Source: an uncultured bacterium
GTDB lineage: Bacteria > Omnitrophota > Omnitrophia > Omnitrophales > Aquincolibacteriaceae
DNA: 64,000 nt
Assembly: GCA_964562525.1 (NCBI GenBank)
Contig: CAZLTL010000001.1
Span: 104,428 to 168,427 of the forward strand
Direction: 5' to 3'
Shown: piece by piece, positions 11,649 through 54,912 of the stretch
How the letters are laid out: every line of letters begins with the position of its first letter
Position numbering within the stretch: position 1 is the stretch's first letter
Notes under the pieces: generated by a model
The model's database searches: none
Seen by the model: only the letters and a program-made list of their open reading frames with translations
Told to the model about the DNA's origin: nothing
Position numbers and translations under genes: made by a program

Positions 11649-11763
11649 AACCGCTCAAAAGACTTGGATGTCAGGCACTCACGAGCGCCCGCGGAGGCGT
11701 AGTGAAACCTACGCCGCACAAGGAAGCGAAGGGAGCAACGCCGCAACCGAGCTCTTTTCAGCG
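11649..11763. repeat. REP/BIME-like structured intergenic element, copy a (odc|dapF spacer)
   Basis: Core is GAGCGCCCGCGGAGGCGTAG-TGAAAC-CTACGCCGCACAAGGAAGCGAAG...GCAACGCCGCA. The flanks CCGCTCAAAAGA and TCTTTTCAGCGG are mutually complementary. It shares this core with copies b-e. Confidence 0.6.
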
Positions 11764-11765
11764 GT

Positions 11766-12953
11766 TTAAATAAGGACGATTTTGGCGGGGGGAAAACCGT
11801 TAAAATTGGGGGTCGCGCTGGCAGAAGAATAAGCGCCTATGTTCTTCACATAGACGATATCTCCCATATTTAGTTCCGGCATTTCGCAATTTTCCGCCAA
11901 AGTATCAAGAGAATCGCAAGTCGGTCCGGCCAAAGTACACATAAACTTAGGTCCGCGGCGCAAGGTTTTGAACTCATATTTACAGTGATCAAAAATCATG
12001 CCCGAGAAATCCTGGTAAATTCCGTCATTTAAATAATAGTAACTCTTGTTGTTGCGGAAAGACCGGCCCACAACCTTGGTCACTAAAATTCCGGATGGCC
12101 CCGCAAAGAAACGGCCGGGTTCAGCGATAATTTTGACATTGCTGTCAAAAAGTTTCTTCAACTGCTTGCGAATTTGCGCGGCCATACGTTCGAAGTTAAT
12201 TCCGATTTCATTGTCAAAATGCTGAATCGGAAATCCCCCGCCGATATCGACGATTTTGAGCGGCATTCCATTCGATTCCGCTTCTTCAAAAATCGCGGCC
12301 GTAATTTCAAGCGCTTGTAAATAATTTTCCACGTTCTTGGACTGTGAGCCCACATGAAAACTAATTCCCTTCGGAACCAGCCCCAAAGCTTTGGCTTTCT
12401 TTAAAAGAAAGAAAGCCTGCTCGGGATCGCAACCGAATTTAAGCGAAAGCTGAACCACACTGCCGAGGTTCGCCACTTTAATACGCGCAACCACATGCGC
12501 GCCGGGATAATTCTCAGCAATTTTATAAAGCTCGGTTTCACTGTCAAAAGTCATCAACTTCACGCGCCGGCGTTTCGCGGCTTGAATATCCTCTTCTGAT
12601 TTAATCGTGTTCGCAAAAATTACTTTGCTCGGCTCCGCGCCCAATTTTAAAACCAATTTCATTTCTGCCGCGCTGGCAACGTCAAAAGACGCGCCAAGAT
12701 CAACGAATTCTTTGATGATTTTCGGATGCGGGTTGGCCTTAATCGCGTAATAAGGAGTGACTTCGGGAAGACATTTACGGAACCGTTCGTATTGCTTTTG
12801 CAAAGCAGAACGGCGAATCAGCATGAAAGGCGTCTTGTGCTTTTTGAGCATCGAACGAACCAAGTCGTCGATACCAAAAGGCGCGGGACCTTTCGATTTA
12901 CTGGCTAACAGCGGAGGCTCTTGTTGAGGAGCTGATTCTTCTTTCATAGGCAC
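11766..12953 (-). CDS. Eukaryotic-type (alanine-racemase-fold, Fold III) ornithine decarboxylase; likely the putrescine-forming step for the adjacent homospermidine synthase
   Basis: The PLP-lysine context is PYYAIKANPHP. FANTIK, MTFDSETEL, SFHVGSQ, IVDIGGGFP and IAEPGRFF are ODC-like. GPTCDSLD carries the catalytic Cys as in eukaryotic ODC GPTCDGLD. The end GAYSSASATPNFNGF also matches ODC. The ATG at 12953 overlaps hss by 56 nt; an alternative start lies at 12851 (MLKKHK). Confidence 0.8.
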   Translation of the reverse strand: MPMKEESAPQQEPPLLASKSKGPAPFGIDDLVRSMLKKHKTPFMLIRRSALQKQYERFRKCLPEVTPYYAIKANPHPKIIKEFVDLGASFDVASAAEMKLVLKLGAEPSKVIFANTIKSEEDIQAAKRRRVKLMTFDSETELYKIAENYPGAHVVARIKVANLGSVVQLSLKFGCDPEQAFFLLKKAKALGLVPKGISFHVGSQSKNVENYLQALEITAAIFEEAESNGMPLKIVDIGGGFPIQHFDNEIGINFERMAAQIRKQLKKLFDSNVKIIAEPGRFFAGPSGILVTKVVGRSFRNNKSYYYLNDGIYQDFSGMIFDHCKYEFKTLRRGPKFMCTLAGPTCDSLDTLAENCEMPELNMGDIVYVKNIGAYSSASATPNFNGFPPAKIVLI

Positions 12954-14418
12954 CTAGTCTCTCCTGATGATGGATGAGAAACGTTGTAAATTGCCAGACA
13001 TCCTCTGGTCTCGGTTGCGGGACATTGAACTTGGTATATTTAATATTGGCATTTTTCATCGGCGTCCAATCCACCGCTTCAGAAAAAATCGGCTTAATAT
13101 AAGGCTTCACAATTTTAAGAATCGGCTCATGATCCACATCATCCGGCATCAAAAACCCTTTGCGCGGATTATCAATCATCCAAATCACCGCTGCCACCAT
13201 CGAAATCGCAACCTGCAAAGTCGTTGCTTGCTGACCGGGAGCCAGCTTGCGGGCCTCATCAATAGTTAAACAGCTGCCGCACCACCAAGAGTTAAAATCA
13301 TGCCCCATCAAAAGCACGCCCAGCTCATCTTTACCGGCAATAATTTCATCATTCATGATGCGCTGCTTTTCCTGCAATTGAAACTGGCGCATCTCAAGTT
13401 CATGCATGGAGTTGATCGCGGAGTCAGACGGGCAATACGCATAATGCACGGTCGGACGATAAACCGGAACGCCGCGTTCCCACACCGTCAAACGATCCGA
13501 AATACTGAAAGCTTCACCGTGACGAATCACCATGCCGGTAATTTCACCGCTCGGAACCCAAGAACGCACCCAGGTTTTCATACCGATCGTATTTAAGCAA
13601 ATTTGATTCTTAGGACCCTCGTCATAAAAGAAAGCCCCGTCGGGAATCAGCTTCTCATGCGTTCCCCAGCCCATTTCCGCCGGCGCCACACCCTCTTCAT
13701 AAAAACCCTCGATACTCCAAGTGTTCACAAACTCATTCATTTGCTTGGGCTTGTCGGTAATTTGCGAATCGCGCTCGCTGATGTGAATGGTTTTAACGCC
13801 GGTCAACTGCGCCAGCTTAGAAAAATTCTTGTCTTCCAACGCCTGAACAAGCTGCTTCTTGCGCTTATCCTTAGGCTTCACTTTTAAAATCTTTTCACCG
13901 ATTTGGATCAGCGCGTGTTTTGTGAAATGGGAAACAAGCCCGGGATTAGCGCCATGATCAACAATCGCGGTTGCACCGGGCTGAGTCGCCCAGGGATCGG
14001 TAATTTTACGCAACCGCATATGGCGGTTATAAAGCGTATAACGGCGCGGGTCATCGCGAATTTCATCTCCGTACGGATCCCACTCTTCAACCGAGGTGTT
14101 GGAATAGAGCACGTCATGCTGCCGGCACCAGGTTAAAATCGCGCCGCAATCAATGTTCCATGCAAGGTCAATAATCAAATCGCCTTTACCGACATATTTG
14201 GAAAGCAGCTTGGAATAATTTTCGGGCGCGATGCGGTCAACAACATAATTGACGCCGCGCTTTAAAGCGGATTTAACGCGGTGACGATTATCAACAAAAT
14301 CCATGATCGTGATTTTTTCCGCCGGCATATCCATATGCTTAAGCAGAAGCGGAATGAGACACTGTGAAACAGAGCCGCATCCGATCACCAAGATTTTGCC
14401 GTTAAATTTCTTTTTCAT
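12898..14418 (-). CDS. hss: Homospermidine synthase (bacterial HSS, CANSDH/saccharopine-dehydrogenase-like)
   Basis: It has an NAD-binding start KILVIGCGSVSQ. Long collinear matches to characterised bacterial HSS include VNTWSIEGFYEEGVAPAEMGWGTHEK, YRPTVHYAYCPSDSAINSMHE, DELGVLLMGHDFNSWWCGS and APGQQATTLQVAISMVAAVIWMIDNP. Confidence 0.85.
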   Translation of the reverse strand: MKKKFNGKILVIGCGSVSQCLIPLLLKHMDMPAEKITIMDFVDNRHRVKSALKRGVNYVVDRIAPENYSKLLSKYVGKGDLIIDLAWNIDCGAILTWCRQHDVLYSNTSVEEWDPYGDEIRDDPRRYTLYNRHMRLRKITDPWATQPGATAIVDHGANPGLVSHFTKHALIQIGEKILKVKPKDKRKKQLVQALEDKNFSKLAQLTGVKTIHISERDSQITDKPKQMNEFVNTWSIEGFYEEGVAPAEMGWGTHEKLIPDGAFFYDEGPKNQICLNTIGMKTWVRSWVPSGEITGMVIRHGEAFSISDRLTVWERGVPVYRPTVHYAYCPSDSAINSMHELEMRQFQLQEKQRIMNDEIIAGKDELGVLLMGHDFNSWWCGSCLTIDEARKLAPGQQATTLQVAISMVAAVIWMIDNPRKGFLMPDDVDHEPILKIVKPYIKPIFSEAVDWTPMKNANIKYTKFNVPQPRPEDVWQFTTFLIHHQERLGAYERRISSSTRASAVSQ

Positions 14419-14477
14419 TTTTATATGTCAGATTTATAACCTGCTGGCGGTTGAGCAACGCTCAGAGCCAAAATAAA

Positions 14478-14507
14478 ACAGAATTGAAATATACAATAAC
14501 TGCACTC
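14478..14507 (-). promoter_or_regulatory. Sigma70-type promoter for hss-odc: TTGACA, 16-nt spacer, TATATT
   Basis: The minus strand reads TTGACActgagtgcagttattgTATATT about 60 nt upstream of the hss ATG. This is a near-consensus -35 and -10. Confidence 0.5.
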
Positions 14508-14523
14508 AGTGTCAATAAAACTG

Positions 14524-14853
14524 TTAGCTTTTTTTCGCGAAACGGCGACTGCGGTGCTCCGAAACTTCCGCGGCGGTAAAACCGACTGCCTGTTGCGGTG
14601 GCAAAGCGCCCAAAATCTGTTCTAACCGGCGCAAAATCCGGCGTTGCGGCTGAGAAAGTTCATAGCGTGAGTAAAATCCTGACAAAAAACCGAGCGCTTC
14701 GGCGGCAGGAATGCGAAAAACATCGGAAGTTGCCGTACGGCAGCACGCAAAACCGGTGATCAATTCAGACCAAAGTTTTTCACTCACCGGAAAGCCGTCT
14801 TCATTTTGAAAATCAGGCACCGCGTCGGAAGTAAAAAGAAAAACCTGACGCAC
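14524..14853 (-). CDS. Hypothetical 109-aa protein; GTG start directly abuts the lysA stop
   Basis: The ORF fills the lysA-hss spacer with no gap. Its codon usage resembles its neighbours. It has no recognisable motif, no internal Met and no Shine-Dalgarno. Confidence 0.3.
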   Translation of the reverse strand: MRQVFLFTSDAVPDFQNEDGFPVSEKLWSELITGFACCRTATSDVFRIPAAEALGFLSGFYSRYELSQPQRRILRRLEQILGALPPQQAVGFTAAEVSEHRSRRFAKKS

Positions 14854-16113
14854 TTACTTGAGATAAGCCGGAATCACTTCCCCGGCAAGCAATTCGTCCA
14901 CGGACTCGCGTTTTTTAACCACGCTAAAAGAAGAGCCCTTCACCAAAACTTCAACCGCGCGACCGCGCGTATTGTAATTGGAAGACATCACATATCCGTA
15001 GGCTCCCGCTGAAAAAACCGCGATCAAATCACCGCGCTTCAGTTCGGGCAATTTACGTCCCTTGGCGAGATAATCGCCGCTTTCACACACCGGTCCGACC
15101 ACGTCGTAAACCACGGTCTTGGACTTTGCTTTTTTGCTCACAGGCTCAATGCGATGATAGGCATCGTAAAAAGAAGGGCGAATCAAATCATTCATGGCCG
15201 CGTCAATGATCGCGAAATTCTTCACATCGGTTTCTTTCACATAAATTACCTGTGCCGCGAGAATACCGCTATTCGCGGAAATAAAACGACCCGGCTCCAT
15301 AATGATTTTGAGCCCGGTCTTTTTCAGAATCGACGCGACTTTCTTGGCATAATCCGACGCCTTCTGGGGCTTTTCATGATTATAAGTCACGCCTAATCCG
15401 CCGCCGATATTAAGAAACTCCAACGCAACTCCGTCTTTTTGCAAATCAGCGATAAACTTTGTCACTTTATTGAACGCGTGCACAAACGGAGTTCCGCTTT
15501 CAATCTGAGAACCGATATGCACATGCAAACCCGCAAAACGCACCCAAGGATACTGATCGCGGTTGATAAAAGCTTCTTCCGCCGTCAGCAAATCAATCCC
15601 GAACTTGCTTTCTTTTTTTCCCGTTGAAATATGGCGGTGCGTACGCGGATCCACATCAGGATTGATACGCAAAGAAATCGTCGCTTTGCGCTTCAATTTT
15701 TCCGCCACCGCATTAATCGCGGCAATTTCAGGAATGGACTCCACATTGAAAAATAAAATTCCATAACGGATGGCCGCGGCGATTTCTTCATCCGTTTTAC
15801 CAACACCGGCAAAGACAATTTTTTCGCCGGGACAACCCGCGCGCTTCGCCCGTTCAAGCTCCCCACCCGAGACAATATCAAGCCCGCTGCCTTGCTTCAC
15901 AAGCGCGCGCAAAACAGCGATGTTGGAATTGGCTTTCATCGAATAGCAAATTAAAGGATTCACCGATTTAAAAGCCAGCTGCAATTCCTTCAGGCGGCCC
16001 GTAAAAGCAGCATGGCTATATATATAGGCAGGCGTTCCGGCGGCTTTGACAATATCCGCAACGCGCACACCTTCGCAAAAAAGCTCATTCTTCTTATAAG
16101 TAAATTCAGACAT
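14854..16113 (-). CDS. lysA: Diaminopimelate decarboxylase
   Basis: YDVVGPVCESGD is the LysA signature. The PLP-lysine context is CYSMKANSN, with HVHIGSQ also present. The start MSEFTYKK is preferred (GGAGA Shine-Dalgarno 7 nt upstream); the track ORF extends to 16164. Confidence 0.9.
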   Translation of the reverse strand: MSEFTYKKNELFCEGVRVADIVKAAGTPAYIYSHAAFTGRLKELQLAFKSVNPLICYSMKANSNIAVLRALVKQGSGLDIVSGGELERAKRAGCPGEKIVFAGVGKTDEEIAAAIRYGILFFNVESIPEIAAINAVAEKLKRKATISLRINPDVDPRTHRHISTGKKESKFGIDLLTAEEAFINRDQYPWVRFAGLHVHIGSQIESGTPFVHAFNKVTKFIADLQKDGVALEFLNIGGGLGVTYNHEKPQKASDYAKKVASILKKTGLKIIMEPGRFISANSGILAAQVIYVKETDVKNFAIIDAAMNDLIRPSFYDAYHRIEPVSKKAKSKTVVYDVVGPVCESGDYLAKGRKLPELKRGDLIAVFSAGAYGYVMSSNYNTRGRAVEVLVKGSSFSVVKKRESVDELLAGEVIPAYLK

Positions 16114-16136
16114 GGGGTTCTCTCCGAGCCGCGGGA

Positions 16137-17537
16137 CTAAGCCCGGGATAGTTTCTTTTTCCAAAATTGGATTTGTTGTTTGACCAAGCGAGGACTGGTA
16201 CTGCCAAGCGTTTGTTTGCCCTCCACCGACTTTTCAGCGTTGAAAAGCGCAAACGCGTCACGGCCCGCGGCGGGGGCGAATGCCTGCAATTCTTTTAAAT
16301 CAAAATCACGGATTTTTTTTCCGGTTTTAACCGAATGCGCCACAATTTTACCGACCGCGTGATGCGCATCCGTAAAAAGCACACCCTTGCGAACCAAATA
16401 TTCAAGCAAATCAGTCGCGTAAAGGCCGTCATCCTGTAATTGCTTTTCCGCAGCCTGTTTTTGAAACTTTGCGGTTTGAATCGTGAGACTTAAAACTTCA
16501 AGCGCCAGCATCGTTTCAGCCAAGGCGAAAAAAACACCGGGTTTGTCTTCCTGCAAATCGCGGTTATAAGCGAGGGGCAAGCCCTTTTGCACAACAAGCA
16601 TTGCCTGCAAAATCCCGAAAATGGATCCGCTCTTCCCTCTTACCAGCTCAAAGACATCCGGATTTTTCTTCTGCGGCATTAAGCTCGAGCCTGTAGAAAA
16701 ACGATCATCCAAATCCACATAACCAAAAAATTCCGAATTCCACAAAACAAAATCTTCGGATAGGCGCGACAAATGCACCCACACCGTTGAAATACCGGCG
16801 AGCAATTCCGCTAAAAAAGCACGATCACTTGTCGCAGCCATGCTATTCATGGCCAACTTCGAAAAACCTAGCTCTTTCGCAAGAAATTTACGGTCAAAGG
16901 GCAAAGCCGACCCTCCAAGCGCCGCGGAACCGAGCGGCAAAACATCCAGCCGTTTCAAAACATCACTCAGCCGATCAATGTCTTCTTCCAGCATTTCAAC
17001 ATAAGCAAGCAGATGATGCGCGAGTAAAACTGGCTGTGCTTTTCTTAAATGCGTGAGACCGGGAATAATCAGATCAGCATTATTCTCAGCTTGCTGCGTT
17101 AATGCTTTTTGAAGCTTACGGACATAAGCCTGCAATTGAGCAACTTGTCCTTTTAAGTAAACACGCGTAGAAGTCACAACTAAATCATTGCGGCTCCGGC
17201 CCGTATGCAGTTTTTTTGCGACGGGACCGCAAGCTTTTTCGAGCAAAGTCTGAATCAGCGAATGCACATCTTCGACATCGGAATATTCGCAGCAAGCCTG
17301 ACACTCATCCCATTCTTTCTCAATTTTATCGAGGCCTCTGGCAAGCTTCTTCAATTCGGCGGAAGAAACAACCTTCGCCTTGGCGAGCATTTTAATCCAC
17401 GCGCGATTCACTTGAATTTCAGAATAAAAAAGCGCGCTGTCAGTCGCCAGCGAATAGCTAAATTCCTGCAAAGCGGGATGCATGCCCTGCTCAAATCTTC
17501 CGCCCCACAACTTTTTCTGCCCGTTTTCTTTTTTCAT
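16137..17537 (-). CDS. argH: Argininosuccinate lyase
   Basis: It starts KLWGGRF. The fumarate-lyase signature GSSLMPQKKNPD is present. Confidence 0.92.
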   Translation of the reverse strand: MKKENGQKKLWGGRFEQGMHPALQEFSYSLATDSALFYSEIQVNRAWIKMLAKAKVVSSAELKKLARGLDKIEKEWDECQACCEYSDVEDVHSLIQTLLEKACGPVAKKLHTGRSRNDLVVTSTRVYLKGQVAQLQAYVRKLQKALTQQAENNADLIIPGLTHLRKAQPVLLAHHLLAYVEMLEEDIDRLSDVLKRLDVLPLGSAALGGSALPFDRKFLAKELGFSKLAMNSMAATSDRAFLAELLAGISTVWVHLSRLSEDFVLWNSEFFGYVDLDDRFSTGSSLMPQKKNPDVFELVRGKSGSIFGILQAMLVVQKGLPLAYNRDLQEDKPGVFFALAETMLALEVLSLTIQTAKFQKQAAEKQLQDDGLYATDLLEYLVRKGVLFTDAHHAVGKIVAHSVKTGKKIRDFDLKELQAFAPAAGRDAFALFNAEKSVEGKQTLGSTSPRLVKQQIQFWKKKLSRA

Positions 17538-17562
17538 ATTTTCCCGATTTTTTTAATCGCTC

Positions 17563-17689
17563 TAAAAAATTCTCAAAATGATGCGGATGCCAGGCGCGCC
17601 CGAGTCATCGAGGAGGCGTATTTACTGATACGCCGCACGATGGTGACGAAAGGCGCAACGCCGCAGACGCTCATTTTCAGAATTTTTAC
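17563..17689. repeat. REP/BIME-like structured intergenic element, copy b (argG|argH spacer)
   Basis: Core is CGAGGAGGCGTA-TTTACTGA-TACGCCGCACGATGGTGACGAAAGGCGCAACGCCGCAGACG. The flanks TAAAAAATTCTCAAAATGA and TCATTTTCAGAATTTTTAC are complementary. The 3' arm overlaps the argG stop codon. Confidence 0.6.
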
Positions 17690-18879
17690 TTGCCCATGCC
17701 TTCGTAAGGAAGCCCCCAAAGCTTCATAAACCCGGCAGCCGCAGTTCTGTCAAACACATCGCCCTTGGAATAAGTTGCCAGTTTATGCGAATACAGTGAA
17801 TACTTTGACTCACGCCCAGCAGGGAGCACATGCCCCTTCTCCAACTTAAATTTGATTTTTCCGGTTACGCGCTTTTGATTTGAGGCAAAAAAAGCATCAA
17901 GCGCATTCTTCAGCGGCGAAAACCAAAGCCCGAAATAAACCAGCTCCGAATACTTTTCGGAAAGAACACGCTTGTAATGCAGAAACTCGCGGTCCATCAC
18001 AAGACCTTCAAGCTCTTCATGCGCTTTAAGCAATACTTCCGCAGCCGGCGCTTCATAGATTTCTCGGCTCTTGATTCCGACCAACCGGTTTTCAACCATA
18101 TCAAAACGGCCGACGCCGTTACGACCGGCAATCACATTCAATTTTTCAATCAACGCGGCAAAGCCCATTTTCTTACCGTTAAGCTTTACAGGTACACCGT
18201 TCACAAAATCAATCGTGACATATTCATGCTTCGGAGTTTTGGAAACATGGCGCGTCATTACATAAGCGTCTTCCGGCGGTTCCTGCCAAAGGTCTTCCAG
18301 AATTCCGGCTTCTATCGCGATACCCCAAATATTTTTGTCGATCGAATAGGGGCTTTTCTTCGTCGCACCGATGGGGATTTTATGCTTAATCGCGTAATCA
18401 ATTTCCTCTTCGCGGGTATTAAATTCCCACTCGCGTAAAGGCGCGATGATTTCAAGCTTTGGATTGAGCGTACGAACGCCGACTTCAATGCGAACCTGAT
18501 CATTGCCTTTACCCGTGCAGCCATGCGCCACAGCGGTTGCGCCCTCTTTTTCAGCGACTTCCGCGAGCCGCTTCGCGATCAAAGGACGACCGAGCGCGGT
18601 TGCAAGAGGATATTTGCCTTCATATCGCGCATGCGCCCACAGAGCTGGCAAAATAAAGTCATCGGCGAACTCTTGCTTCAAATCTTCAATGTAAACTTTT
18701 TTCGAACCGGCCGCGTTGGCACGTTTTCTCAAAATTTTAGGGTCGCTGACTTCCCCTAAAAACGCGGAGAAGCAGATCACTTCCGCGTTATATTTATCTT
18801 TGAGCCATTTCGCGATACAAGATGTATCCAGCCCGCCCGAATACGCCAACACAATTTTTTTATTTGCAGACTTTTTCAT
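17686..18879 (-). CDS. argG: Argininosuccinate synthase
   Basis: It has the PP-loop AYSGGLDTS. The remainder is collinear with ArgG. Confidence 0.92.
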   Translation of the reverse strand: MKKSANKKIVLAYSGGLDTSCIAKWLKDKYNAEVICFSAFLGEVSDPKILRKRANAAGSKKVYIEDLKQEFADDFILPALWAHARYEGKYPLATALGRPLIAKRLAEVAEKEGATAVAHGCTGKGNDQVRIEVGVRTLNPKLEIIAPLREWEFNTREEEIDYAIKHKIPIGATKKSPYSIDKNIWGIAIEAGILEDLWQEPPEDAYVMTRHVSKTPKHEYVTIDFVNGVPVKLNGKKMGFAALIEKLNVIAGRNGVGRFDMVENRLVGIKSREIYEAPAAEVLLKAHEELEGLVMDREFLHYKRVLSEKYSELVYFGLWFSPLKNALDAFFASNQKRVTGKIKFKLEKGHVLPAGRESKYSLYSHKLATYSKGDVFDRTAAAGFMKLWGLPYEGMGK

Positions 18880-19805: not shown

Positions 19806-19808
19806 AAA

Positions 19809-21011: not shown

Positions 21012-21014
21012 TCT

Positions 21015-31720: not shown

Positions 31721-31835
31721 AAATAAGTCTGATCAAAAAGCTTCAGATGCAAGACGCAAGCAAGCGCCCGCGGAGGCGTAGTGAAAATCTACGCCGCACA
31801 AGGAAGCGACGCTTGCAACGCTGCAGATGAACTTT
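31721..31835. repeat. REP/BIME-like structured intergenic element, copy c (thiG|leuB spacer)
   Basis: Core is GCGCCCGCGGAGGCGTAG-TGAAAAT-CTACGCCGCACAAGGAAGCGACGCTTGCAACGCTGCAGATGA. The flanks CTGATCAAAAAGCTTCAGATGCA and TGCAGATGAACTTTTTCATCAG are complementary. Confidence 0.6.
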
Positions 31836-31839
31836 TTCA

Positions 31840-32619
31840 TCAGACTTTCAGACCTTGCTGAGGCGAGGATGCACTTGCATAGTCTCGAACCGGCATACGC
31901 CCGGCCAAAAAGGCCTTACGTCCAGCGTTCACAGCATCTTTCATCGCTTCCGCCATTAAAACCGGATTCTGAGCTTCGGCGATCGCTGTATTGAGCAACA
32001 CGCCATCCGCGCCCATTTCCATCGCAATCGCAGCATCAGAAGGTGTCCCCACGCCGGCATCAATAATCACCGGACAATCCACTGCTTCCATCAAAAGTTT
32101 GATCGCAAGACGATTTTGAATGCCCTGGCCGGATCCAATCGGCGCACCAAGTGGCATAACACAAGCCGCCCCCGCATCCACAAGTTTTTTAGCCACAACC
32201 AAATCATCACTGGTGTAAGGCATAACGACAAAACCTTCTTTGACAAGCTCCCGTGTCGCCTCAATTAAACCAACGACATCCGGCATCAAAGTTTTCGGGT
32301 CGCCGATCACTTCCAGCTTCACAAGTTCGCCCATTCCCGCTTCGCGCGCCAAGCGTGCAATACGCAAAGCATCTTTCACATTGTAGGCTCCGGCCGTATT
32401 CGGAAGAATTTTAATTTTCTTCTGATCGATAAAATCAAGAATGCTTTTCTCTTTTCGGTTGGATAAATCAAACCGCGCGGTCGCCAGCGTCACCATATCC
32501 ACACCGGCTGCCTCATGCGCTTCGCGCATCAACTCAAAAGAAGCGTATTTCCCCGTCCCGATAATCAACCGTGACTTAATTTCATACCGACCTATTTTTA
32601 AAACACTGTCTTGAGCCAT
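31840..32619 (-). CDS. thiG: Thiazole synthase
   Basis: It starts [22 protein letters not shown] is the ThiG signature. Confidence 0.9.
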
Positions 32620-39530: not shown

Positions 39531-40781
<1,251 letters not shown>

Positions 40782-40782
40782 C

Positions 40783-41865
40783 TTACTGGATGAACATTCC
40801 ATCGCCATAACTCGCGAATCTATAATCGGTATCTAAAGCCGTCTGATAAGCATCCATCGTCTTTTCATAGCCCATAAACGCGCTCACCAAAACCAGCAAT
40901 GAAGTTTTCGGAAAATGAAAATTTGTAATCAGCGCATCCACCACTTTAAATTCATAAGGGGGATAAATAAAAAGCCCGGTCGCACCCTGCCCCGACTCCA
41001 CAACGCCGTCACTATTGACCGCCGCTTCTAAAGTACGAACGCTGGTGGTTCCGCAAGCAATGACTCGCCGGCCTTCTTTTTTCGCTTTATTGATTGCCGC
41101 AGCCGCAGGATCAGAAATCGTAAAAGTTTCAACCGCCATTTGATGATCGCGGATACGCGGAGCCTGCATAATTTGAAAAGTTCCGTACCCGACATCCAGC
41201 GTCACTTCAACAATCTCAACACCTTTTTTCTTAATCGCTTCCAAAAGCTCCTTATCAAAATGCAAACCCGCCGTGGGCGCCGCAACCGAACCTGCTTTTT
41301 CGGCAAATACGGTTTGATACTGCTCGCGATCCGAAACCTCGTCGTCACGGTGAATATAAGGGGGTAAAGGCATATGTCCGGCTTTTTCAAGAAATGCCGG
41401 AAAATCCGAAGTTTCAAACTCAAGCAGGCGGCGACCGTCGTCTTTACGCGGATGGTCTACCGCTTTCACGGTAATAAAATGCGCGCCTTGACCAACTTCA
41501 AAGCATTCGCTTTTTTTAATTTTACCTGATGGTTTAACCAACGCTTCCCAAACAACGCTATCCGCTTTTTTCTCAACAAGTTTTAAAAGTAAAACTTCCG
41601 CTTTCGACCCGGTCATGCGATGCCCAAAAATACGCGCGGGAATAACGCGCGTATTATTCACAACGAGCACATCGCCGGCTTTTAAATACTCCGGCAAATC
41701 TTTGAAAATGCGATGATCAGCGGATTCATCTTTACGGTTTAAGACTAACATTTTCGCCGCCGACCGGTCCGGCAACGGATAAAGCGCGATGCGTTCCTTG
41801 GGAAGCGGGTAATCGAAGTCGCTTAAAAAACGTCCGGAAGATGAATGCGGTGCGGAAGAGCTCAT
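40783..41865 (-). CDS. queA: S-adenosylmethionine:tRNA ribosyltransferase-isomerase
   Basis: LSDFDYPLPKERIALYPL, VLVVNNTRVIPARIFG and PLPPYI are present. Confidence 0.9.
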   Translation of the reverse strand: MSSSAPHSSSGRFLSDFDYPLPKERIALYPLPDRSAAKMLVLNRKDESADHRIFKDLPEYLKAGDVLVVNNTRVIPARIFGHRMTGSKAEVLLLKLVEKKADSVVWEALVKPSGKIKKSECFEVGQGAHFITVKAVDHPRKDDGRRLLEFETSDFPAFLEKAGHMPLPPYIHRDDEVSDREQYQTVFAEKAGSVAAPTAGLHFDKELLEAIKKKGVEIVEVTLDVGYGTFQIMQAPRIRDHQMAVETFTISDPAAAAINKAKKEGRRVIACGTTSVRTLEAAVNSDGVVESGQGATGLFIYPPYEFKVVDALITNFHFPKTSLLVLVSAFMGYEKTMDAYQTALDTDYRFASYGDGMFIQ

Positions 41866-42781: not shown

Positions 42782-42813
42782 ACCAATGTTTAAAAAGGAG
42801 CGTAGCTGCTCCT
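42782..42813 (-). terminator. Hairpin terminator immediately 3' of tRNA-Arg (bidirectional form)
   Basis: The sequence is TTTAAAAAGGAGC-GTAGCT-GCTCCTTTTTAAA. It has a 10-bp stem with an A-run and a T-run. Confidence 0.6.
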
Positions 42814-42824
42814 TTTTAAACATG

Positions 42825-42896
42825 TGCCCGGGTGGATTTGAACCACCAACCCCTGCCTTCGGAGGGCAGTACTCTATCCAGTTGAGCTACGGGCAC
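42825..42896 (-). tRNA. tRNA-Arg (anticodon CCG)
   Basis: The minus strand reads GTGCCCG-TA-GCTC-AACTGGATA-GAGT-A-CTGCC-CTCCGAA-GGCAG-GGGTT-GGTGG-TTCAAAT-CCACC-CGGGCAC-A. The cloverleaf is complete. CCA is not encoded. Confidence 0.9.
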
Positions 42897-46113: not shown

Positions 46114-46157
46114 AGATATAAAATGAAATTTGAGCTTTTATTGAATAAAGCATTATA

Positions 46158-46892: not shown

Positions 46893-46928
46893 ATCGCAAG
46901 CAAACTTAGAAATCACAAATCAAAGCTC

Positions 46929-47000
46929 AGAACCATAACTCAAAGCCTTCCAGATGTTCGAAAACCTTTGAGCTTTGATCTGTGTTTTTGAAATCTGATT
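46929..47000 (+). terminator. Nested hairpin terminator after the M48 peptidase gene
   Basis: ATCAAAGCTCAG...CTCAAAG...CTTTGAGCTTTGAT is followed by TGTGTTTTTG. Confidence 0.5.
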
Positions 47001-47018
47001 TTTGAGTTTTGAGTTAAC

Positions 47019-47885: not shown

Positions 47886-47947
47886 AAGGCTTAAGTTACC
47901 TTATGTCTCGACCAAAACCAAGCCGACATTGAGAAGAAAAATTTTAT

Positions 47948-48811: not shown

Positions 48812-48890
48812 TCACCCAATCTTAATCTGTTAAAAATGAAACCAAGGGAGCGGATTCTAGACTTTTTCGCGGAATTTCGCCAGATTTTAT

Positions 48891-49544
48891 CTACCACGCT
48901 TTTTCACGCGCCAAAGCCAACAAAGCCGGAAAATCATCGCAAATATACTCCGAGCCCAAACTGTCCAAGCTCACCTTACTGGCAAAACCATGTCGCAAAA
49001 GCACAGTATCAACACCGGCATTTTTTCCGGTCTGCGCGTCAATTTGGCTGTCGCCGATCCAAAGCACTTCTCGAGGCTGAATGCCTTTTTCACTCATCAC
49101 TTTGAGTAAAGCGGCCGGATCGGGCTTGCGCGGAATCCCCTTTTCGCCCGTATAAACACCGCTTAAATACGGCATCACTTTCAATGCAGTCAAAATTTTT
49201 GTGGTAAAAGGTTCAGGTTTATTGGTCACCACAATCTGAACACGGTTTTTAAAATATTCCAAGACCTGATCCGCGGCGGGATAAAGCCGGGTGTAATCCA
49301 ATAAATGCTCTTTGTAATACTTTCTCAAAAAACTAGCGCCGTGCTCTACCGTTTTGGGATCATCCTCACCCAGGCACATCGCCACTAAATGATTCAACCC
49401 TTCGCCGACAAAGCGCTCAATCTGAATATCTTCCAGGCGCGGCTTTTTCATTTCTGACAGCATATACTGCACACCGCAAACGATATCACGCCGTGTATCC
49501 GCTAGAGTCCCATCTAAATCATACGCGATTAATTTTTTAAGCAT
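48891..49544 (-). CDS. HAD-superfamily hydrolase (phosphoglycolate-phosphatase-like)
   Basis: Motif I is AYDLDGTL. Motif III is the K context and motif IV is WIGDSQID. It overlaps the helicase gene by 8 nt. Confidence 0.75.
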   Translation of the reverse strand: MLKKLIAYDLDGTLADTRRDIVCGVQYMLSEMKKPRLEDIQIERFVGEGLNHLVAMCLGEDDPKTVEHGASFLRKYYKEHLLDYTRLYPAADQVLEYFKNRVQIVVTNKPEPFTTKILTALKVMPYLSGVYTGEKGIPRKPDPAALLKVMSEKGIQPREVLWIGDSQIDAQTGKNAGVDTVLLRHGFASKVSLDSLGSEYICDDFPALLALAREKAW

Positions 49545-52500
49545 GGCTCCACTTCGCTTTCACAAATTCTAAAAGGCGCAATTGCAGCTCATTGACCTCG
49601 TTTTCAATTTGATCAAAAGCCTCTAATGCAACCGTCACTGTTTTGTGGTTTTTTAAATAATAAATTTGCGCTTTCGTGACCGGCTGCTTCAAAATTTTAG
49701 ACGCTGCCAACGCATAGATTTTAATCTGCAAATCATAACCCCGTTCCGTGGTCTTAGTCTCATCGCCTTCGGCTGTTTTATAATCCAACACCGTATACGC
49801 GCCTTCGGGATTCAAGTAAAGCACGTCGATCACGCCGTCAATCAATCCGCGGCGGGCATTCAAAACAAAACTGAGCTCGCGGCACACCTTGGATGACGCG
49901 CGCATTTCACGGAACAAATCCGTCGCAAAAAATCCGCTCAGTATCTTTCCTGCCTCGCTTCTTTTTTGATCGGAAAATCCCGCAAACAGCGCGTCCATAC
50001 TCTTCGCATCCAGCGTTTTTTCAGGCCGCGCCCAATCTAAAAACTCAAGCGCGCGATGCATGCGGGTTCCAAAGTCTGCGGCATCTTCACCGCGCACCGC
50101 CGGTTCCTGCTGCGCCATCACATCACGCATTTCCTCCTGCGGCAAACTCCAACCTTGTCCATAAACATTCCAAAAACGTTCCGGATCTTTCAAGAAAAGA
50201 ACGTAAGCGCTGACAGGCAAATCAATCACTTTCGAAAACTCGGGCTGATAAACCGTTTCAACCCGTTTTATTATTTGGGCGGATTGAGGAGAAAGCTCTT
50301 TTTCGGATTTCACAAAGGGCGCGCCGCTTTTCGCGGTCATGAGCCAGTCCTTAAAAGCCGGCATTTCGGCAGAACAAGCCGGTGCAGGGGCGCGGAACGC
50401 AGGCGCCAAGGCCGCGGCTTCTTCCGTAGCCACTTCAAATGATTCTTGCTCCGACATCACCCATTCCATCCACGAAGCCATATCTGCGTAGCCTTCTCTT
50501 TCAGTTTTAACCGGTCTATGCACACCGCTTAAAATCAAATGTTCTTCCGCACGCGTTACCGCCACATAAAAAAGACGCTTTCGCTCCGTATGACTTTGAC
50601 GATCCTGATGTTCTCCGATTTGGTCATGCGACCATACCGCTTCGTTTTTCCCCGTAATCGGATTTTTAACTTTGATGGCCCAGCCGGCATAAGGCAAAGC
50701 AAGTACGGGACTGCGTTCCTGATTGTTTTTGCGGCGCCCCAAATCAGCCAAAAAAACATAAGGAAACTCGAGACCTTTCGCCGCGTGAATGGTCATCAGC
50801 CGCACCGCCTGCACTTCCTCTCCCGCCGCGTGATGGTCGGACTCACGCACCTCCTGAAACTGAAGTCTGCGGACCAACGCTAAAAAACGGTGAATCGACA
50901 AACGTCCGCGGCTTTCCTGTTTGCGGGCAAGCTGAATAAATTTACGCACATGACCATAACGGCGAATCCCCGCGGTTTGCGCTAAAGCCCAAACTGCGTA
51001 ACCTGTTTTTTGTACGGCATTTTCAATTAAATCACTTAAGCGGCCGGCATCTTTACGTTTGCGCCAAATCTGAAATTGATGAAAAAAAGTTTCCAGCTTT
51101 TGCTTCTCAGCGTCGGACAATTCCGTGATTTCACGGAACTTCAGCAGCCCGTCATAAAGAGGCAACCGCTCATCCTGCGCCTTCGCTTTTTCCGCAAGCC
51201 AAAATAAAGTTTCATCATTCACCCCTACGAATGGCGAGCGCAGAAGCGCTGCCAAAGCCACATCCGACAACGGATTCTGTAAGCATTCCAAGAAACTAAT
51301 TAAGTCGCGGATTTCCGGCTGCTCATAAAAACTCATCCCCGACACCGAAACATAAGGAATTCCGGCACGGCGCAAAGCATATTCATACAGCGCGCTATGC
51401 GTCATCGCGGAAAAGAGAACGGCCATTTTTCCGTAAGAAACCCCCTCGTCGTTTAACTGGACCATGCGCGCGGCAATCCGGCTACCTTCACGCAAACGGT
51501 CTTCCGCCGCGCCGCCCTCCACATCGGAAGCCACAACCAAAAGCTCGGGCTTGCGCCCAATATTTCCCGGATTTTTATTTTGCTTCGCCGCGGACAACTT
51601 TGAAAAATGAAAACCGTCTTCTTCCCAAAGTTTTTCAAAAAACGTGTTGGCAAAATCAATCACGCCGGATTCACTGCGGAAGTTATCCGCCAAATCAATT
51701 TTAAGTGCGGCTTTAGAGCCTTCAAATTCGGCTTCGGTTTCAAGAAAAAGCTTCGGCTCCGCGCCGCGGAACGCGTAAATTGACTGTTTGTAATCGCCCA
51801 CCAGAAAAATCTCCGCCTGCGGCATTAAAAAACGCACTAACTCCATCTGCAAATGACTGGTGTCCTGAAATTCATCCACAAATACATAGCGAAATTGACG
51901 GCGCAGCGCGTTCGCCACAATTTTCGCGCCCGGATGAGAAAGCCGCAGCATTTGCGCGGCGCGCACCTGCAAATCATCAAAATCGAGGCCGTTTTGAATT
52001 TGTTTTTTTTGAATGTACAGGCTTTCAAACTTGAGCGCCGCCTGCTCGAACAAACCCATGGTCTCTTCCGCGAACTTTTCAAATTGAAAAGGCAGCCACT
52101 CTTCTTTGATGATTTTTTTAAATGGCGTCACCTTAGGCGAGCGGCTTAATGATTCAAACCACTCACGAAAAAGAACCGCCTCTTCCCAGCCTTGTAGATC
52201 GGCATTCATCCAACGCGTCCATCCCGCATGATCAAACTTATCTCCGGCATTTTCGGCAGCTTCGCAAGCCCGGGCTTTGAATAAAAGCTTCTGTTCTTGA
52301 ACACGTTCGGCACGGATTTTTTTCCATTTCGGAAAATAGGCCGGTAAATCGAGCCCTTCTTGTCCGGCGGTATGATAAACACTCAAAATAGCTTCGCGCA
52401 GCCCATGCTCGCCGTAAGCTTGAAATAACGCAAAAGCAGGAGCCCGCGTTTCAAACAAAGACGCAATCGCTTCATCCAGCGCTTCTTCTTTGAAGAGCTC

Positions 52501-52860
52501 CGCTTCTTCATTTTCAAGAACGCGGAATTCAGGATCAACCCCCGCTTCCACCGGATGATTGCGTAAAAGGCGGGCTGAAAAACCGTGAAAAGTAGAAATA
52601 TATGCCGACTCCAAATCCTGCCGCGCGGCGGTCAGATTTTCTTCCTGAAAACGGCGGGATAAACGCTGTTTTATTTCGCCGGCTGCTTTTTCGGTGAAAG
52701 TCAAAATCAGGAGTTCTGAGACAGGCACGCCTCGGCGCGCGACAAGCTCTACGGCCCTTTCAACCAGGGTCCGGGTCTTTCCCGTCCCCGCTCCGGCGGA
52801 AATAAGGGCATGGAGCCCTTTGAGGCTAACCGCTTTTTTCTGATCTTTTGTCAATTTCAT
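49537..52860 (-). CDS. UvrD/PcrA-like helicase fused to a C-terminal PD-(D/E)XK nuclease (AddA/RecB-like), ~1107 aa
   Basis: It has the Walker A ISAGAGTGKT. A UvrD-like helicase core follows. The C-terminal nuclease reads GLIDGVIDVLYLNPEGAYTVLDYKTAEGDE. No addB-like partner is adjacent. Confidence 0.8.
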   Translation of the reverse strand: MKLTKDQKKAVSLKGLHALISAGAGTGKTRTLVERAVELVARRGVPVSELLILTFTEKAAGEIKQRLSRRFQEENLTAARQDLESAYISTFHGFSARLLRNHPVEAGVDPEFRVLENEEAELFKEEALDEAIASLFETRAPAFALFQAYGEHGLREAILSVYHTAGQEGLDLPAYFPKWKKIRAERVQEQKLLFKARACEAAENAGDKFDHAGWTRWMNADLQGWEEAVLFREWFESLSRSPKVTPFKKIIKEEWLPFQFEKFAEETMGLFEQAALKFESLYIQKKQIQNGLDFDDLQVRAAQMLRLSHPGAKIVANALRRQFRYVFVDEFQDTSHLQMELVRFLMPQAEIFLVGDYKQSIYAFRGAEPKLFLETEAEFEGSKAALKIDLADNFRSESGVIDFANTFFEKLWEEDGFHFSKLSAAKQNKNPGNIGRKPELLVVASDVEGGAAEDRLREGSRIAARMVQLNDEGVSYGKMAVLFSAMTHSALYEYALRRAGIPYVSVSGMSFYEQPEIRDLISFLECLQNPLSDVALAALLRSPFVGVNDETLFWLAEKAKAQDERLPLYDGLLKFREITELSDAEKQKLETFFHQFQIWRKRKDAGRLSDLIENAVQKTGYAVWALAQTAGIRRYGHVRKFIQLARKQESRGRLSIHRFLALVRRLQFQEVRESDHHAAGEEVQAVRLMTIHAAKGLEFPYVFLADLGRRKNNQERSPVLALPYAGWAIKVKNPITGKNEAVWSHDQIGEHQDRQSHTERKRLFYVAVTRAEEHLILSGVHRPVKTEREGYADMASWMEWVMSEQESFEVATEEAAALAPAFRAPAPACSAEMPAFKDWLMTAKSGAPFVKSEKELSPQSAQIIKRVETVYQPEFSKVIDLPVSAYVLFLKDPERFWNVYGQGWSLPQEEMRDVMAQQEPAVRGEDAADFGTRMHRALEFLDWARPEKTLDAKSMDALFAGFSDQKRSEAGKILSGFFATDLFREMRASSKVCRELSFVLNARRGLIDGVIDVLYLNPEGAYTVLDYKTAEGDETKTTERGYDLQIKIYALAASKILKQPVTKAQIYYLKNHKTVTVALEAFDQIENEVNELQLRLLEFVKAKWSHA

Positions 52861-52985
52861 ATAAAAGTTGCCGATAAACAATGTGGGGTTACTCGAACGT
52901 CCGAGAATTATAGCTTTAAATGGGCTTTTCTGCGCATGGGTTTTGCGGTTGATTACAGCAGTATGACAAATCGGAGAATAAGATT

Positions 52986-53432
52986 ATGACATCATCAGAG
53001 AAAAGAAAATTTGAGCGTTTTCCGATTCACGCATCAATCCACATTAAGGACACGAATCGAAATTGCCGCGCCATCACCTACTCCGACGATCTTTCAGAAG
53101 GCGGGCTTGCTTTTTACGCTTTAAAACCCATTCCCGAAGGATCCGAGCTGGAAATCAGCATCGGAGTGCGCGGACATATTTTTAAAATTGAAGCGCAAGC
53201 GGTTTATAGCGCCAACCGACCCACTAAAAAATTCTACAGAACCGGAGTAGAGTTTAAGGACAGCACCAGCGCATTTAAAGCCAAGCTAGCGGAAGAAGTC
53301 GTCCTCATCAAAGCCTATCAAAAACAGCTCAGCAAAGAAACGCATCATCGCATCTCCGAGTTTGACGCGGCAATTGATTGGATTGAAAAGAATGCAGCCT
53401 GCTTCGGAAGAATTGCCGCGCCTAAGAAGTAA
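52986..53432 (+). CDS. PilZ-domain protein (c-di-GMP receptor)
   Basis: The RxxxR motif is RKFERFPIH. The D.S.GG motif is DDLSEGGLAF. Confidence 0.8.
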   Translation: MTSSEKRKFERFPIHASIHIKDTNRNCRAITYSDDLSEGGLAFYALKPIPEGSELEISIGVRGHIFKIEAQAVYSANRPTKKFYRTGVEFKDSTSAFKAKLAEEVVLIKAYQKQLSKETHHRISEFDAAIDWIEKNAACFGRIAAPKK

Positions 53433-53486
53433 CACTTAGGTCTCATCCGATTTTCTTTTGAGATGAGACACAGCTTTGAGAATTGC

Positions 53487-53516
53487 TCGAAATAACGAGC
53501 TCGTTATTTCGATTTT
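53487..53516 (+). terminator. Palindromic hairpin terminator after the PilZ gene
   Basis: TCGAAATAACGAGCTCGTTATTTCGA is followed by TTTTAAAAG. A second hairpin, GTCTCATC...GATGAGAC, lies at 53440-53469. Confidence 0.5.
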
Positions 53517-53526
53517 AAAAGAAAAG

Positions 53527-54255
53527 TTAGCCTTTCACGATCGGCTTATCGACTCTTTCTAAAACCGTAGCGGTCGGTTTCGCAAAATAATAGCCCTGCC
53601 CATAGCGAATACCCAGTTTGCGGACATACAGCAGGTCGGACTCATTCTCAATGCCTTCAGCAACCAAATGGGACCCATACATATTCGCGAGACGAACTAA
53701 TTCACGGACAATTTGCTGATGCAGCTTGTTTTCAGAAATCCCCATAATGAGAGCCAAATCAATTTTCATGTAATCCACTTTCAAAGAGGAAACAGCAAAA
53801 GTTTTAGGCCCGATATCGGTAAAGTCATCCAAAGCCACTTGAAAATTTCTTTTGCGGATAAACGCGACGCCTTTGCGAATCGGCTCTAAATCCTTCATGC
53901 GCACGCCTTCGGTCAGTTCAAGCACAATCCGGTTGGCAAAAGGCTTTAATTTTCTAAGAAACTGATCACCAAGGCCTTTGGTCACAAAAGCCTGAAACAA
54001 AGTAATCGGCTCCAAATTGAGAAAAAGAAGTTTTCCCGGCGCCAGCTTGGGCAAAATTTTAACGGCGGAATTAAGGCAGGCAAAATCGAACTCCATCACC
54101 TCGCCGTCTTGATAAGACTCGCGCAGTAAGTTGAGCGGAGCTTTACCGTCAATCCGCGATAACGCTTCATAACCCAAAATATCGTGATCCACCAAATCAA
54201 CAATGGGCTGATAAACCGAACTCAAATCATGATATTTGGAATGTGCTGACGTCAT
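53527..54255 (-). CDS. Stand-alone EAL-domain protein (c-di-GMP phosphodiesterase; catalytic residues largely intact)
   Basis: YQPIVDL, YEALSR, FLNLE, ELTE, DDFTDIG (a degenerate DDFGTG), EGIE and GQGYYF are present. Confidence 0.8.
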   Translation of the reverse strand: MTSAHSKYHDLSSVYQPIVDLVDHDILGYEALSRIDGKAPLNLLRESYQDGEVMEFDFACLNSAVKILPKLAPGKLLFLNLEPITLFQAFVTKGLGDQFLRKLKPFANRIVLELTEGVRMKDLEPIRKGVAFIRKRNFQVALDDFTDIGPKTFAVSSLKVDYMKIDLALIMGISENKLHQQIVRELVRLANMYGSHLVAEGIENESDLLYVRKLGIRYGQGYYFAKPTATVLERVDKPIVKG

Positions 54256-54272
54256 GTCTCTTAAAATTCCTT

Positions 54273-54737
54273 TTATGCTGACTTTAAAAAATCAAGAATC
54301 TCAACTTCATGCTCTTTCGGAGTCACCTTGGGGTAAATTTTCTCGATTTTACCCGCTCCTGAAATAATAAAAGTCGCGCGTTGAACGCCCATATATTCGC
54401 GGCCATACATGCTTTTCTTTACCCAAACACCATAAGCCTTAGAAACTTCTTTTTCTTCATCCGCTAAAAGCAAAAAAGGAAGGCTGTATTTAGTGATAAA
54501 CTTTTCATGCGATTTTAGTGAATCGGGACTGACACCGATCACGACCGCTCCGGCTTTTTCAAATTTTTTATACGCATCACGAAAACCGCAAGCTTCCACC
54601 GTGCAGCCCGGAGTATCATCTTTGGGGTAAAAATAAAGTACAACCCGCTTCCCCTTAAAGCTTTTGAGAGAGACTGTTTCACCATTCGATGCCGGAATTT
54701 TAAAATCCGGAGCTTTATCCCCTTCTTTCAACGCCAT
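54273..54737 (-). CDS. bcp: Thioredoxin-dependent peroxiredoxin Bcp/PrxQ
   Basis: It carries FYPKDDTPGCT, which holds the peroxidatic Cys. Confidence 0.85.
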   Translation of the reverse strand: MALKEGDKAPDFKIPASNGETVSLKSFKGKRVVLYFYPKDDTPGCTVEACGFRDAYKKFEKAGAVVIGVSPDSLKSHEKFITKYSLPFLLLADEEKEVSKAYGVWVKKSMYGREYMGVQRATFIISGAGKIEKIYPKVTPKEHEVEILDFLKSA

Positions 54738-54787
54738 AAATCTCCTTAGAGAAAACTATATTTAAATCGTTCAAAAACCAGAATTTT

Positions 54788-54912
54788 AAAATCGCTCAAA
54801 AAGTTTAGCTGCAAGGAACCAAACAAGCAACCGAGGAGACGCACTGAAAGCGTGCGTCGCACGAGCGCTGCGAAGTTTATGACGCAGCAGATGAACCTTT
54901 TTCAGCTATTTT
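54788..54912. repeat. REP/BIME-like structured intergenic element, copy e (trx-like|bcp spacer)
   Basis: Core is CGAGGAGACGCAC-TGAAAG-CGTGCGTCGCACGAGCGCTGCGAAGTTTATGACGCAGCAGATGA. The inner hairpin sequence is changed but still complementary. The flanks AAAATCGCTCAAAAAG and CCTTTTTCAGCTATTTT are complementary. Confidence 0.6.

Follow-up and report, generated by a model that had tools for sequence, protein, structure and literature searches.

A putative mobile hairpin element lying in one orientation behind gene 3' ends in Omnitrophota and other bacterial phyla

Small hairpin repeats are common in bacterial genomes, and few of their families are understood. In Geobacter metallireducens, 24 "predicted short RNA elements" (group 1, Gmet_R1001-R1024) were reported in 2009, and their function was never established (PMC2700814). 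They were annotated as regulatory RNAs 5' of genes, and the paper gave alignments and the neighbouring genes, with no analysis of mobility, polarity or strand (PMC2700814). For Geobacter uraniireducens, the element Chunjie is reported to measure 178-235 bp and to have 21-bp terminal repeats and 9-bp direct repeats. The present analysis concerns a stretch of 64,000 nt, hereafter the window, from contig CAZLTL010000001.1 of an uncultured bacterium of the Omnitrophota. It carries five copies (a-e) of a multicopy element of 120-125 nt located in spacers between annotated genes, whose apical hairpin, GC-GGA-GGCGTA...TACGCC-GC-AC, matches the core of Gmet_R1001-R1024. The family is already known though little studied, and it is described here for the first time in Omnitrophota. 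[quoted passage not shown]

The Geobacter group 1 elements share with the window copies the apical hairpin and its flanks, which read TTGTGCG-GCGTAGC...GCTACGCC-TCCGC on the gene-sense strand; the five window copies are gene-sense when read as the reverse complement. Group 1 elements are about 113 nt long, fold over their whole length into one hairpin, and lie between operon genes in the gene sense, as at dapB/dapL. The central palindrome GRCGTAGCGCTGCTACGCC, flanked by TTGTGCG and TCCGC, is present in the window copies with a different loop and a different eighth base pair. In Geobacter the loop is usually a GCT/AGC triloop on an 8-bp stem, whereas the window copies have apical stems of 6-7 bp and loops of 4-7 nt. 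The arms differ as well, those of the window copies being TCA-AAAAG...CAGATGCAAGG.

The core pattern GGAGRCGYAN{5,10}TRCGYCGCAC has five matches in the window, all of them copies of the element and all on the + strand, with 0 expected from 100 shuffles. A covariance model, R1, was built from 32 family members, and the window was scanned with filters off. The five copies scored 80-116 bits, and the next best match 15.9 bits. There are five copies in 64 kb, without degenerate extras. An earlier note on this DNA, made from the sequence alone, had placed five copies at or near the same positions, all in one orientation; this holds, except that it let copy c end 12 nt too early, at 31835. The inner hairpin variants that it quoted are correct in all five copies. 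Neither the gathering threshold nor a permissive limit of E 10 brought up an Rfam 15 match at the five sites, and no Rfam match coincided with an element in 18 related loci.

On both strands, each copy is predicted to form a single long, imperfect hairpin (z-scores -2 to -6.5). The conserved sequence comprises about 105 nt, from TCA-AAAAG to CTTTT-TCA. From the base inward, an outer stem, 8-9 bp long and specific to its locus, is followed by a C/C mismatch, then by an AAAAAG/CTTTTT helix, in which the A5 and U5 runs are paired with each other inside the stem, and a short helix. On account of the A and T runs, the earlier note had considered a role as bidirectional attenuators. A GA/GA internal loop follows, with CAGATG on both arms, and then a variable helix of 5-6 bp and small helices. 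The tip is formed by the apical stem-loop, the most conserved part of the element and its one central hairpin. All five copies have the flanks GC-GGA and GC-AC-AAG and the stem GGCGTA/TACGCC, which in copy e takes the form GACGCA/TGCGTC.

Double changes occur in 19 of the 41 predicted pairs among the five copies. When 80 distinct family members were aligned to R1, 92.1% of cells were paired compared with 75.7% in shuffles, and double changes were found in 24 of 28 pairs. The covariation score of these members was 0.436, compared with 0.140 in shuffles, of which 0 of 500 reached it, and 0.04-0.08 in slid controls; the alignment was fitted to the model, so that these counts lean towards structure, and the margin is large. 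The compensatory stem variation proposed in the earlier note is therefore real.

Scans brought to light about 200 relatives, whose record titles name several phyla. Species-representative genomes yielded at least 119 loci, with roughly 100 true copies among the matches listed, mostly from Desulfobacterota. The main hosts among these matches are Geobacter, Desulfuromonadales, Desulfobacterales, and Syntrophobacteraceae; other titles name Bdellovibrionales, Nitrospirae, Acidobacteriota, Gemmatimonadota, Omnitrophota, a Chlamydiae metagenome-assembled genome (MAG), Christensenella, and proteobacterial MAGs. Hosts were assigned from the record titles, and binning errors are possible. A metagenome scan for the window-type signature added another 120 loci. 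The core, of 27 nt, is nearly invariant across phyla. A viral collection gave 14 pattern matches with a single true copy (L258; handles of this form denote the loci of relatives), and an origin as a phage element was rejected.

The closest large subfamily is the full Desulfobacterota element, termed type A. It consists of a small perfect hairpin followed by a big hairpin, 174-188 bp in total, with terminal inverted repeats and a 6-bp direct target duplication whose consensus is TAnnTA. Of 42 copies, 17 have it in perfect form, and 10 more retain 5 of 6 bp. Only 1.6 perfect duplications were expected, and the maximum in 1000 shuffled pairings was 6. Terminal repeats together with this duplication are a MITE signature. 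The earlier note had taken the stem variation as a sign of selection on structure rather than of transposase-recognised repeats, and had regarded fixed inverted repeats with target duplications as speaking against its reading. Type A has both, and the contrast is not supported. A further, G+C-rich subfamily has conserved ends GGTTGCT/AGCAACC. Second small hairpins are nested at fixed points inside type A (L004, L007, L023; L017, L073; L088, L096), for example CCTGTCCCGAAGCAGGCGGGG after GACGCCGA and CTGTCTGC...GCAGGC after GCAC. Their sequences suggest other tiny insertion elements that target type A.

Filled and empty sites were compared in close relatives. The best named homologues of the window ArgG and ThiG belong to Candidatus Omnitrophota. 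In L120, where ArgG is 96% identical to that of the window, the argG-argH gap is 9 nt and contains no element; site b is empty. The ArgG of L120 is 7 codons longer, and the window argG ends at a TAA made of a T and the outer stem. After copy b in the mRNA sense, window positions 17538-17564 hold a small extra hairpin, CGATTAAAAAAATCG, and the ribosome-binding site and start of argH differ from those of L120; the ArgH N-terminus is MKKENGQKKLWGG in the window and MSKKLWGG in L120. Because the ends differ between the window and L120, both gene ends at argG/argH appear to have been remodelled along with the gain of the element. The thiG-leuB spacer of L250 has 22 nt, and site c is empty. At the same junction in L246, 26 nt align with the start of the element at 21 of 26 positions, with a score of 27 compared with a shuffle maximum of 25, and this stretch is probably a remnant. 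In about 110 kb of largely syntenic sequence from the Omnitrophota relatives L120-L124 and L245-L250, R1 found no copy. To judge from these comparisons, the element is gained and lost, apparently on the time scale of species or genus divergence. As the window copies show such presence and absence relative to close relatives, mobility and conservation of structure seem to coexist.

Other, unrelated long hairpin repeats fill the same junctions (argG-argH, thiG-leuB, queA-tgt) in Omnitrophota relatives. At thiG-leuB they are carried by L245 and L248. These junctions are either insertion hot spots or a niche for hairpins.

Across the family, the outer stems are perfect Watson-Crick helices of 7-13 bp, unique to their locus in A+T-rich genomes (copy e has one mismatch). 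The window copies share only AAAAG/CTTTT at their ends, and no two of them have the same outer 8-9 bp. The gene-proximal arm at site c, AAGTCTGA, is made up of the final ThiG codons with the stop (QGLKV, stop), and these are also conserved where relatives lack the element. Since this arm is ancestral coding sequence, the distal arm must be a new inverted copy of the flank. Ordinary transposition makes no inverted duplications. As a guess, the outer stem might arise when the hairpin end folds back and copies the gene-side flank, by snap-back or quasipalindrome template switching. To our knowledge, inverted duplication of the target by fold-back copying is a signature not described for bacterial elements. 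Another origin, in which the outer stems were pre-existing terminator hairpins split by the insertion, is weakened by the empty site b of L120, which has no hairpin, and by the coding nature of the site c arm. A TCA direct repeat is present at both inner junctions in 5 of 5 copies, and the conserved C/C mismatch is better read as this direct TCA...TCA repeat than as a structural feature. A 3-bp TNA duplication would have the geometry of TCA at both junctions; since the triplet is nearly always TCA, this is only an idea.

In what follows, E+ designates the GGAGGCGTA strand, antisense to the adjacent gene, and E- its complement, which has the gene sense. The orientation is fixed, with each window copy just 3' of a minus-strand gene stop, as the earlier note had stated, and its five gene pairs were confirmed: decarboxylase/dapF, argG/argH, thiG/leuB, queA/tgt, and thioredoxin-like/bcp. 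Of 79 cases in the genome loci, 59 have an antisense gene 3' of E+, and in 38 of these the distance from its stop to the core is 37-69 nt. Of 55 distinct window-type copies, 42 have a long opposite-strand open reading frame (ORF) that ends between -12 and +6 nt relative to the right boundary; in only 3 does an ORF in the E+ sense stop at the left boundary. The stop favours two positions. One, used in copies a, b, d, and e, is the outer end of the outer stem (UAA/UAG). At the other, the conserved inner-junction TCA, which is UGA in the gene sense, the ORF runs through the proximal arm. The transcript of the gene carries the reverse complement of the element straight 3' of the stop. The element is polar, and it often overlaps or supplies the stop codon of the adjacent gene. 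Overlaps with the stop, noted earlier for some copies, amount to 2 nt of the outer stem in a, b, and e; the stop is inside the arm in c and 1 nt outside in d. The spacers a-e measure 237, 148, 150, 136, and 173 nt, so that elements of 120-125 nt fill most of each and not, as had been claimed, the whole. Type A copies abut stops in G+C-rich genomes partly because TA..TA followed by the first G of the element makes TAA or TAG.

The genes beside the copies have no common function. Copies are 6-14 kb apart in the window, with housekeeping operons between them that are syntenic with relatives lacking the element. Window-type copies often have a second copy as neighbour, 15-260 nt away and with the E+ 5' ends face-to-face, as in L165, L166/L237, L169, L176, L184, L198, L213, and L235. 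Such pairs would suit convergent genes that are each followed by one copy. Coordinates are given in Table 1.

Table 1. Coordinates of the five copies (outer stems included), their apical hairpins, and the adjacent genes in the window, and of unrelated hairpin repeats in relatives.
Feature	Position	Strand	Remarks
Copy a	11648..11767	+	outer stem AAACCGCT/AGCGGTTT; 108.5 bits
Copy b	17565..17687	+	outer stem AAAAATTCT/AGAATTTTT; 94 bits
Copy c	31725..31847	+	outer stem AAGTCTGAT/ATCAGACTT; 115.7 bits
Copy d	40660..40781	+	outer stem CGGTCTTTT/AAAAGACCG; 114.4 bits
Copy e	54788..54912	+	most diverged; outer stem AAAATCGCT/AGCTATTTT, one mismatch; 80 bits
Apical hairpin, copy a	11693..11719	+	GGAGGCGTAG...CTACGCCGCAC; conserved; part common to several phyla
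Apical hairpin, copy b	17612..17638	+	conserved
Apical hairpin, copy c	31772..31799	+	conserved
Apical hairpin, copy d	40707..40733	+	conserved
Apical hairpin, copy e	54835..54862	+	GACGCAC/GTGCGTC, doubly compensated variant
Site a, LysA-like decarboxylase	11766-12953	-	stop 11766-11768; dapF starts 11528
Site b, argG stop	17686-17688		TAA, overlaps outer stem; argH starts 17537
Site c, thiG stop	31840-31842		TGA, inside gene-proximal arm with last two codons; leuB probably starts 31689
Site d, queA stop	40783-40785		tgt start 40646; copy d between
Site e, thioredoxin-like gene stop	54911-54913		overlaps outer stem; bcp starts 54737
Unrelated hairpin repeat, L122	11124-11190		
Unrelated hairpin repeat, L123	11186-11282		
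Unrelated hairpin repeats, L245	10781-10866 and 1260-1363		
Unrelated hairpin repeat, L248	2105-2248		

The two strands of the element are not equivalent across the family. Over 52 distinct copies of type A, E+ has 177 G.U pairs compared with 19 A.C pairs, the latter being wobble pairs on the other strand. In 55 window-type copies the counts are 55 and 22, and a single doubtful pair accounts for 11 of these 22 A.C pairs. Of the two strands, E+ is the more stable in 51 of 52 copies of type A (mean difference 13.2 kcal/mol) and in 40 of 55 copies of the window type (mean difference 4.7 kcal/mol). E+ is on the C-rich strand in the window. The excess of C-to-T changes linked to transcription and replication on coding and leading strands would bias the counts in the opposite way, and selection on the folding of E+ is therefore the simplest reading. 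The modelled folds point to E+, antisense to the neighbouring gene, as the strand that must fold. By analogy with IS200/IS605, REPs and their REP-associated tyrosine transposases (RAYTs), and integron attC sites, this would suggest a single-stranded DNA form in mobilisation and not an mRNA. A mobile element of this kind would land at the 3' end of an ORF in one orientation, the transcript carrying its reverse complement after the stop. After insertion, the operon transcript might contain a long hairpin with an A-tract and a U-tract, weaker in the sense than in the antisense direction.

Several observations weigh against the mobile-element reading. The terminal arms of the window copies are not conserved from copy to copy, unlike those of a classical MITE, and no ordinary target duplication was seen by eye outside their outer stems. 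With a pairwise likeness of only 60-80%, the five copies are old and possibly no longer moving. Gmet_R1005 and GSU0160.1 lie at the same dapB-dapL junction in two Geobacter species, and the occupation of this orthologous site implies that some copies persist for long. The same core occurs in two backbones with different ends, from which it can be argued that the core is cargo rather than a transposase site. The unpaired bases of E+ (A 956, G 680, C 388, T 72) are strongly enriched in A and G, as in functional RNAs. The five window copies lack the E+ bias, G.U and A.C pairs numbering about 7 each, and in 4 of the 5 E- folds as well or better. Finally, no transposase, RAYT, or partner gene was found in the window or recurrently near copies in about 100 loci. 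A role at the level of the host is made possible by the two backbones, the orthologous persistence in Geobacter, and the unrelated hairpins at the same junctions.

The search for a partner gene took several forms. For ten of the less obvious ORFs in the window, the Pfam matches were to peptidase M48, PilZ, RNase III, a helicase, MEDS, and a peptidoglycan-binding domain, and the rest matched nothing; no transposase, Y1 transposase, or integrase was among them, and no RAYT/Y1 transposase gene was seen among the window ORFs tested. No autonomous relative encoding a transposase was found in about 1.9 Mb of loci. Candidate autonomous copies, with type A termini 0.3-4 kb apart, amounted to two chance matches without a transposase. 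In an all-against-all BLASTP comparison of about 100 loci, the top cluster consisted of sigma-54 response regulators, a large paralogous family, and the second of spurious ORFs reading through the element; an explanation by rRNA was excluded with Rfam.

A further account, of rather low probability, treats the conserved core as cargo. The apical hairpin might be a strand-specific module and not a transposase handle, brought to gene 3' ends in several phyla by at least two mobile backbones, one marked by terminal repeats and TAnnTA and the other by TCA with locus-specific stems. It would act in the antisense strand as RNA or single-stranded DNA, e.g., as a one-way barrier to antisense transcription, and fold-back copying would make the outer stems as an inverted target duplication.

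The leading versions of a host role are a one-way antisense barrier at gene ends and a sense-strand mRNA hairpin. In the first, which is doubtful, the element is a polar 3'-end insulator, i.e., an orientation-dependent intrinsic terminator kept by the host. An antisense polymerase would make an E+ hairpin ending in CUUUUU before the stop and terminate, and the sense E- hairpin would be read through. The greater stability of E+ in the window type and type A (means of 4.7 and 13.2 kcal/mol) agrees with this, but the five window copies have no such advantage. CAGATG on both arms gives tandem G.A mismatches at the stem base on E+ and U.C/C.U on E-, and A5 and U5 runs are present in the stem; however, an irregular hairpin of 100 nt is atypical for an intrinsic terminator. 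The element abuts the stop of the gene to be protected, some contigs have two copies with each 3' end outward towards a gene stop, and unrelated long hairpins occupy the same gene junctions in relatives. Close relatives nevertheless lack the element at the same sites, so that it is dispensable, and the type A target duplications indicate spread by transposition, not selection at each site.

A cis-acting RNA on the sense strand is no less doubtful. As an mRNA hairpin it could serve as an attenuator, an RNase III site, a stabiliser, or a modulator of termination, like the REPs of Escherichia coli. REPs within 15 nt of a stop codon can reportedly stall ribosomes, a finding ascribed to Liang, Rudd, and Deutscher in 2015. 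In the mRNA sense, the element stands directly after the stop codon and inside operons, and its structure covaries, but the neighbouring genes share no function and close relatives lack the copies. In four of the five window copies, E- folds at least as well as E+; against this, across the family the wobble pairs lie on E+ and the C.A mismatches on E- (177 to 19; 55 to 22), and the internal loops of E- are U/C-rich with tandem U.C. The family was annotated as regulatory RNAs 5' of genes in the 2009 Geobacter paper (PMC2700814).

An attC-like site is very unlikely. A single-strand-specific recombinase would read the shape and the unpaired bases, i.e., the GGA bulge and the C/C mismatch, and the intervening genes would be rearrangeable. 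The place after the stop, the antisense strand as the one that folds best, stem sequences that vary while the structure is kept, and the length of about 120 nt all suit such a site. It would, however, have its conserved part at the base and not at the hairpin tip, no RYYYAAC/GTTRRRY core sites occur in the five copies, no integrase is encoded among the ten less obvious window ORFs, and the copies, 6-14 kb apart, are separated by housekeeping operons syntenic with relatives without the element. A duplex DNA site for a dimeric regulator or nucleoid protein recognising the GGCGTA/TACGCC palindrome, whose half-sites are almost invariant across phyla, is hardly credible, because the half-sites are 3 to about 10 nt apart, a spacing too variable for a fixed dimer on duplex DNA, a change in one is matched in the other (GACGCA/TGCGTC), and the surrounding 100 nt also covary. 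A non-autonomous mobile hairpin element is the preferred reading over these alternatives.

Other features of the window were recorded during the analysis. At 7192-7294 on the minus strand there is a weak Rfam match to WsnRNA46 (RF02625), with 44.4 bits compared with a gathering threshold of 65.3 and E 4.7e-6, in the spacer between the ORFs 7287-8987 and 1834-7206. A 40-nt A+T-rich palindrome at 42785-42824 abuts the only tRNA gene of the window (42823-42896, minus strand). With the hairpin model it reaches about 16 bits on either strand, so that it is an unrelated small hairpin. A 73-nt direct repeat (6390-6462 and 6954-7026, 77% identical) lies inside the ORF 1834-7206, of 1790 aa, and probably reflects a repeated protein domain. 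From 60001 to 64000 the G+C content is 0.40, compared with 0.46-0.49 elsewhere, over an ORF of 1372 aa (59797-63915).

The family spans several phyla, marks exact gene 3' ends, and sometimes rewrites them by supplying the stop. The element can thereby mislead gene-end calls. It deserves a model of the Rfam or Dfam type; otherwise it will be annotated as unknown RNA or overlooked in Omnitrophota, Desulfobacterota, and others. The strand signature makes the mechanism testable in cultivable Geobacter species, and the unusual polarity and flank signatures merit experiments there.

Among described systems, SECIS elements, group II intron domain V, signal recognition particle RNA, and retron msDNA were dropped as candidates, since their anatomy did not match and Rfam gave no matches. 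Intrinsic and bidirectional terminators resemble the element in combining an A-tract and a U-tract with a G+C-rich hairpin immediately behind a gene. They differ from a hairpin of about 95 nt that has many internal loops, lies inside operons, and has a sequence common to unrelated genes and phyla. Integron attC sites, of 57-141 nt, likewise follow the stop of a cassette, fold from the antisense strand, conserve structure more than sequence, and depend on unpaired bases. The window copies, in contrast, have no R/L boxes, integrase, or cassette array, and their stem base is locus-specific and lacks GTTRRRY.

REPs, bacterial interspersed mosaic elements (BIMEs), and the REPIN-RAYT systems are dispersed extragenic palindromes that are often found just after stops and inside operons. 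REPs and REPINs probably serve a Y1 transposase in the form of single-stranded DNA hairpins, and they persist for long. The REP/BIME-like label given in the earlier note is right for a structured, dispersed intergenic repeat of the REP/BIME/MITE class and does not apply in the strict sense. REPs have 20-40 nt and a GTAG or CGTC tag, and the window element has 120 nt and no tag, GTAG occurring only inside the stem of copies a and c. A REPIN consists of two inverted REPs, and its system includes a single-copy RAYT gene with REPs on both sides, whereas the window element has a single central stem-loop.

Bacterial MITEs such as Correia/NEMIS, ERIC, RUP, and Chunjie are non-coding, 100-200 bp long, form long hairpins, and lie in or between transcription units. 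They insert into operons without breaking them, and their presence differs between strains. The window element is likewise short and multicopy, and it has filled and empty sites (site b in L120, site c in L250, and the remnant in L246). Terminal inverted repeats are not conserved in the window copies and are present in type A and in the GGTTGCT/AGCAACC subfamily. Unlike MITEs, the window copies are conserved at the centre and not at the ends, and their link to stop codons is strongly polar. Type A (174-188 bp) may be related to Chunjie (178-235 bp).

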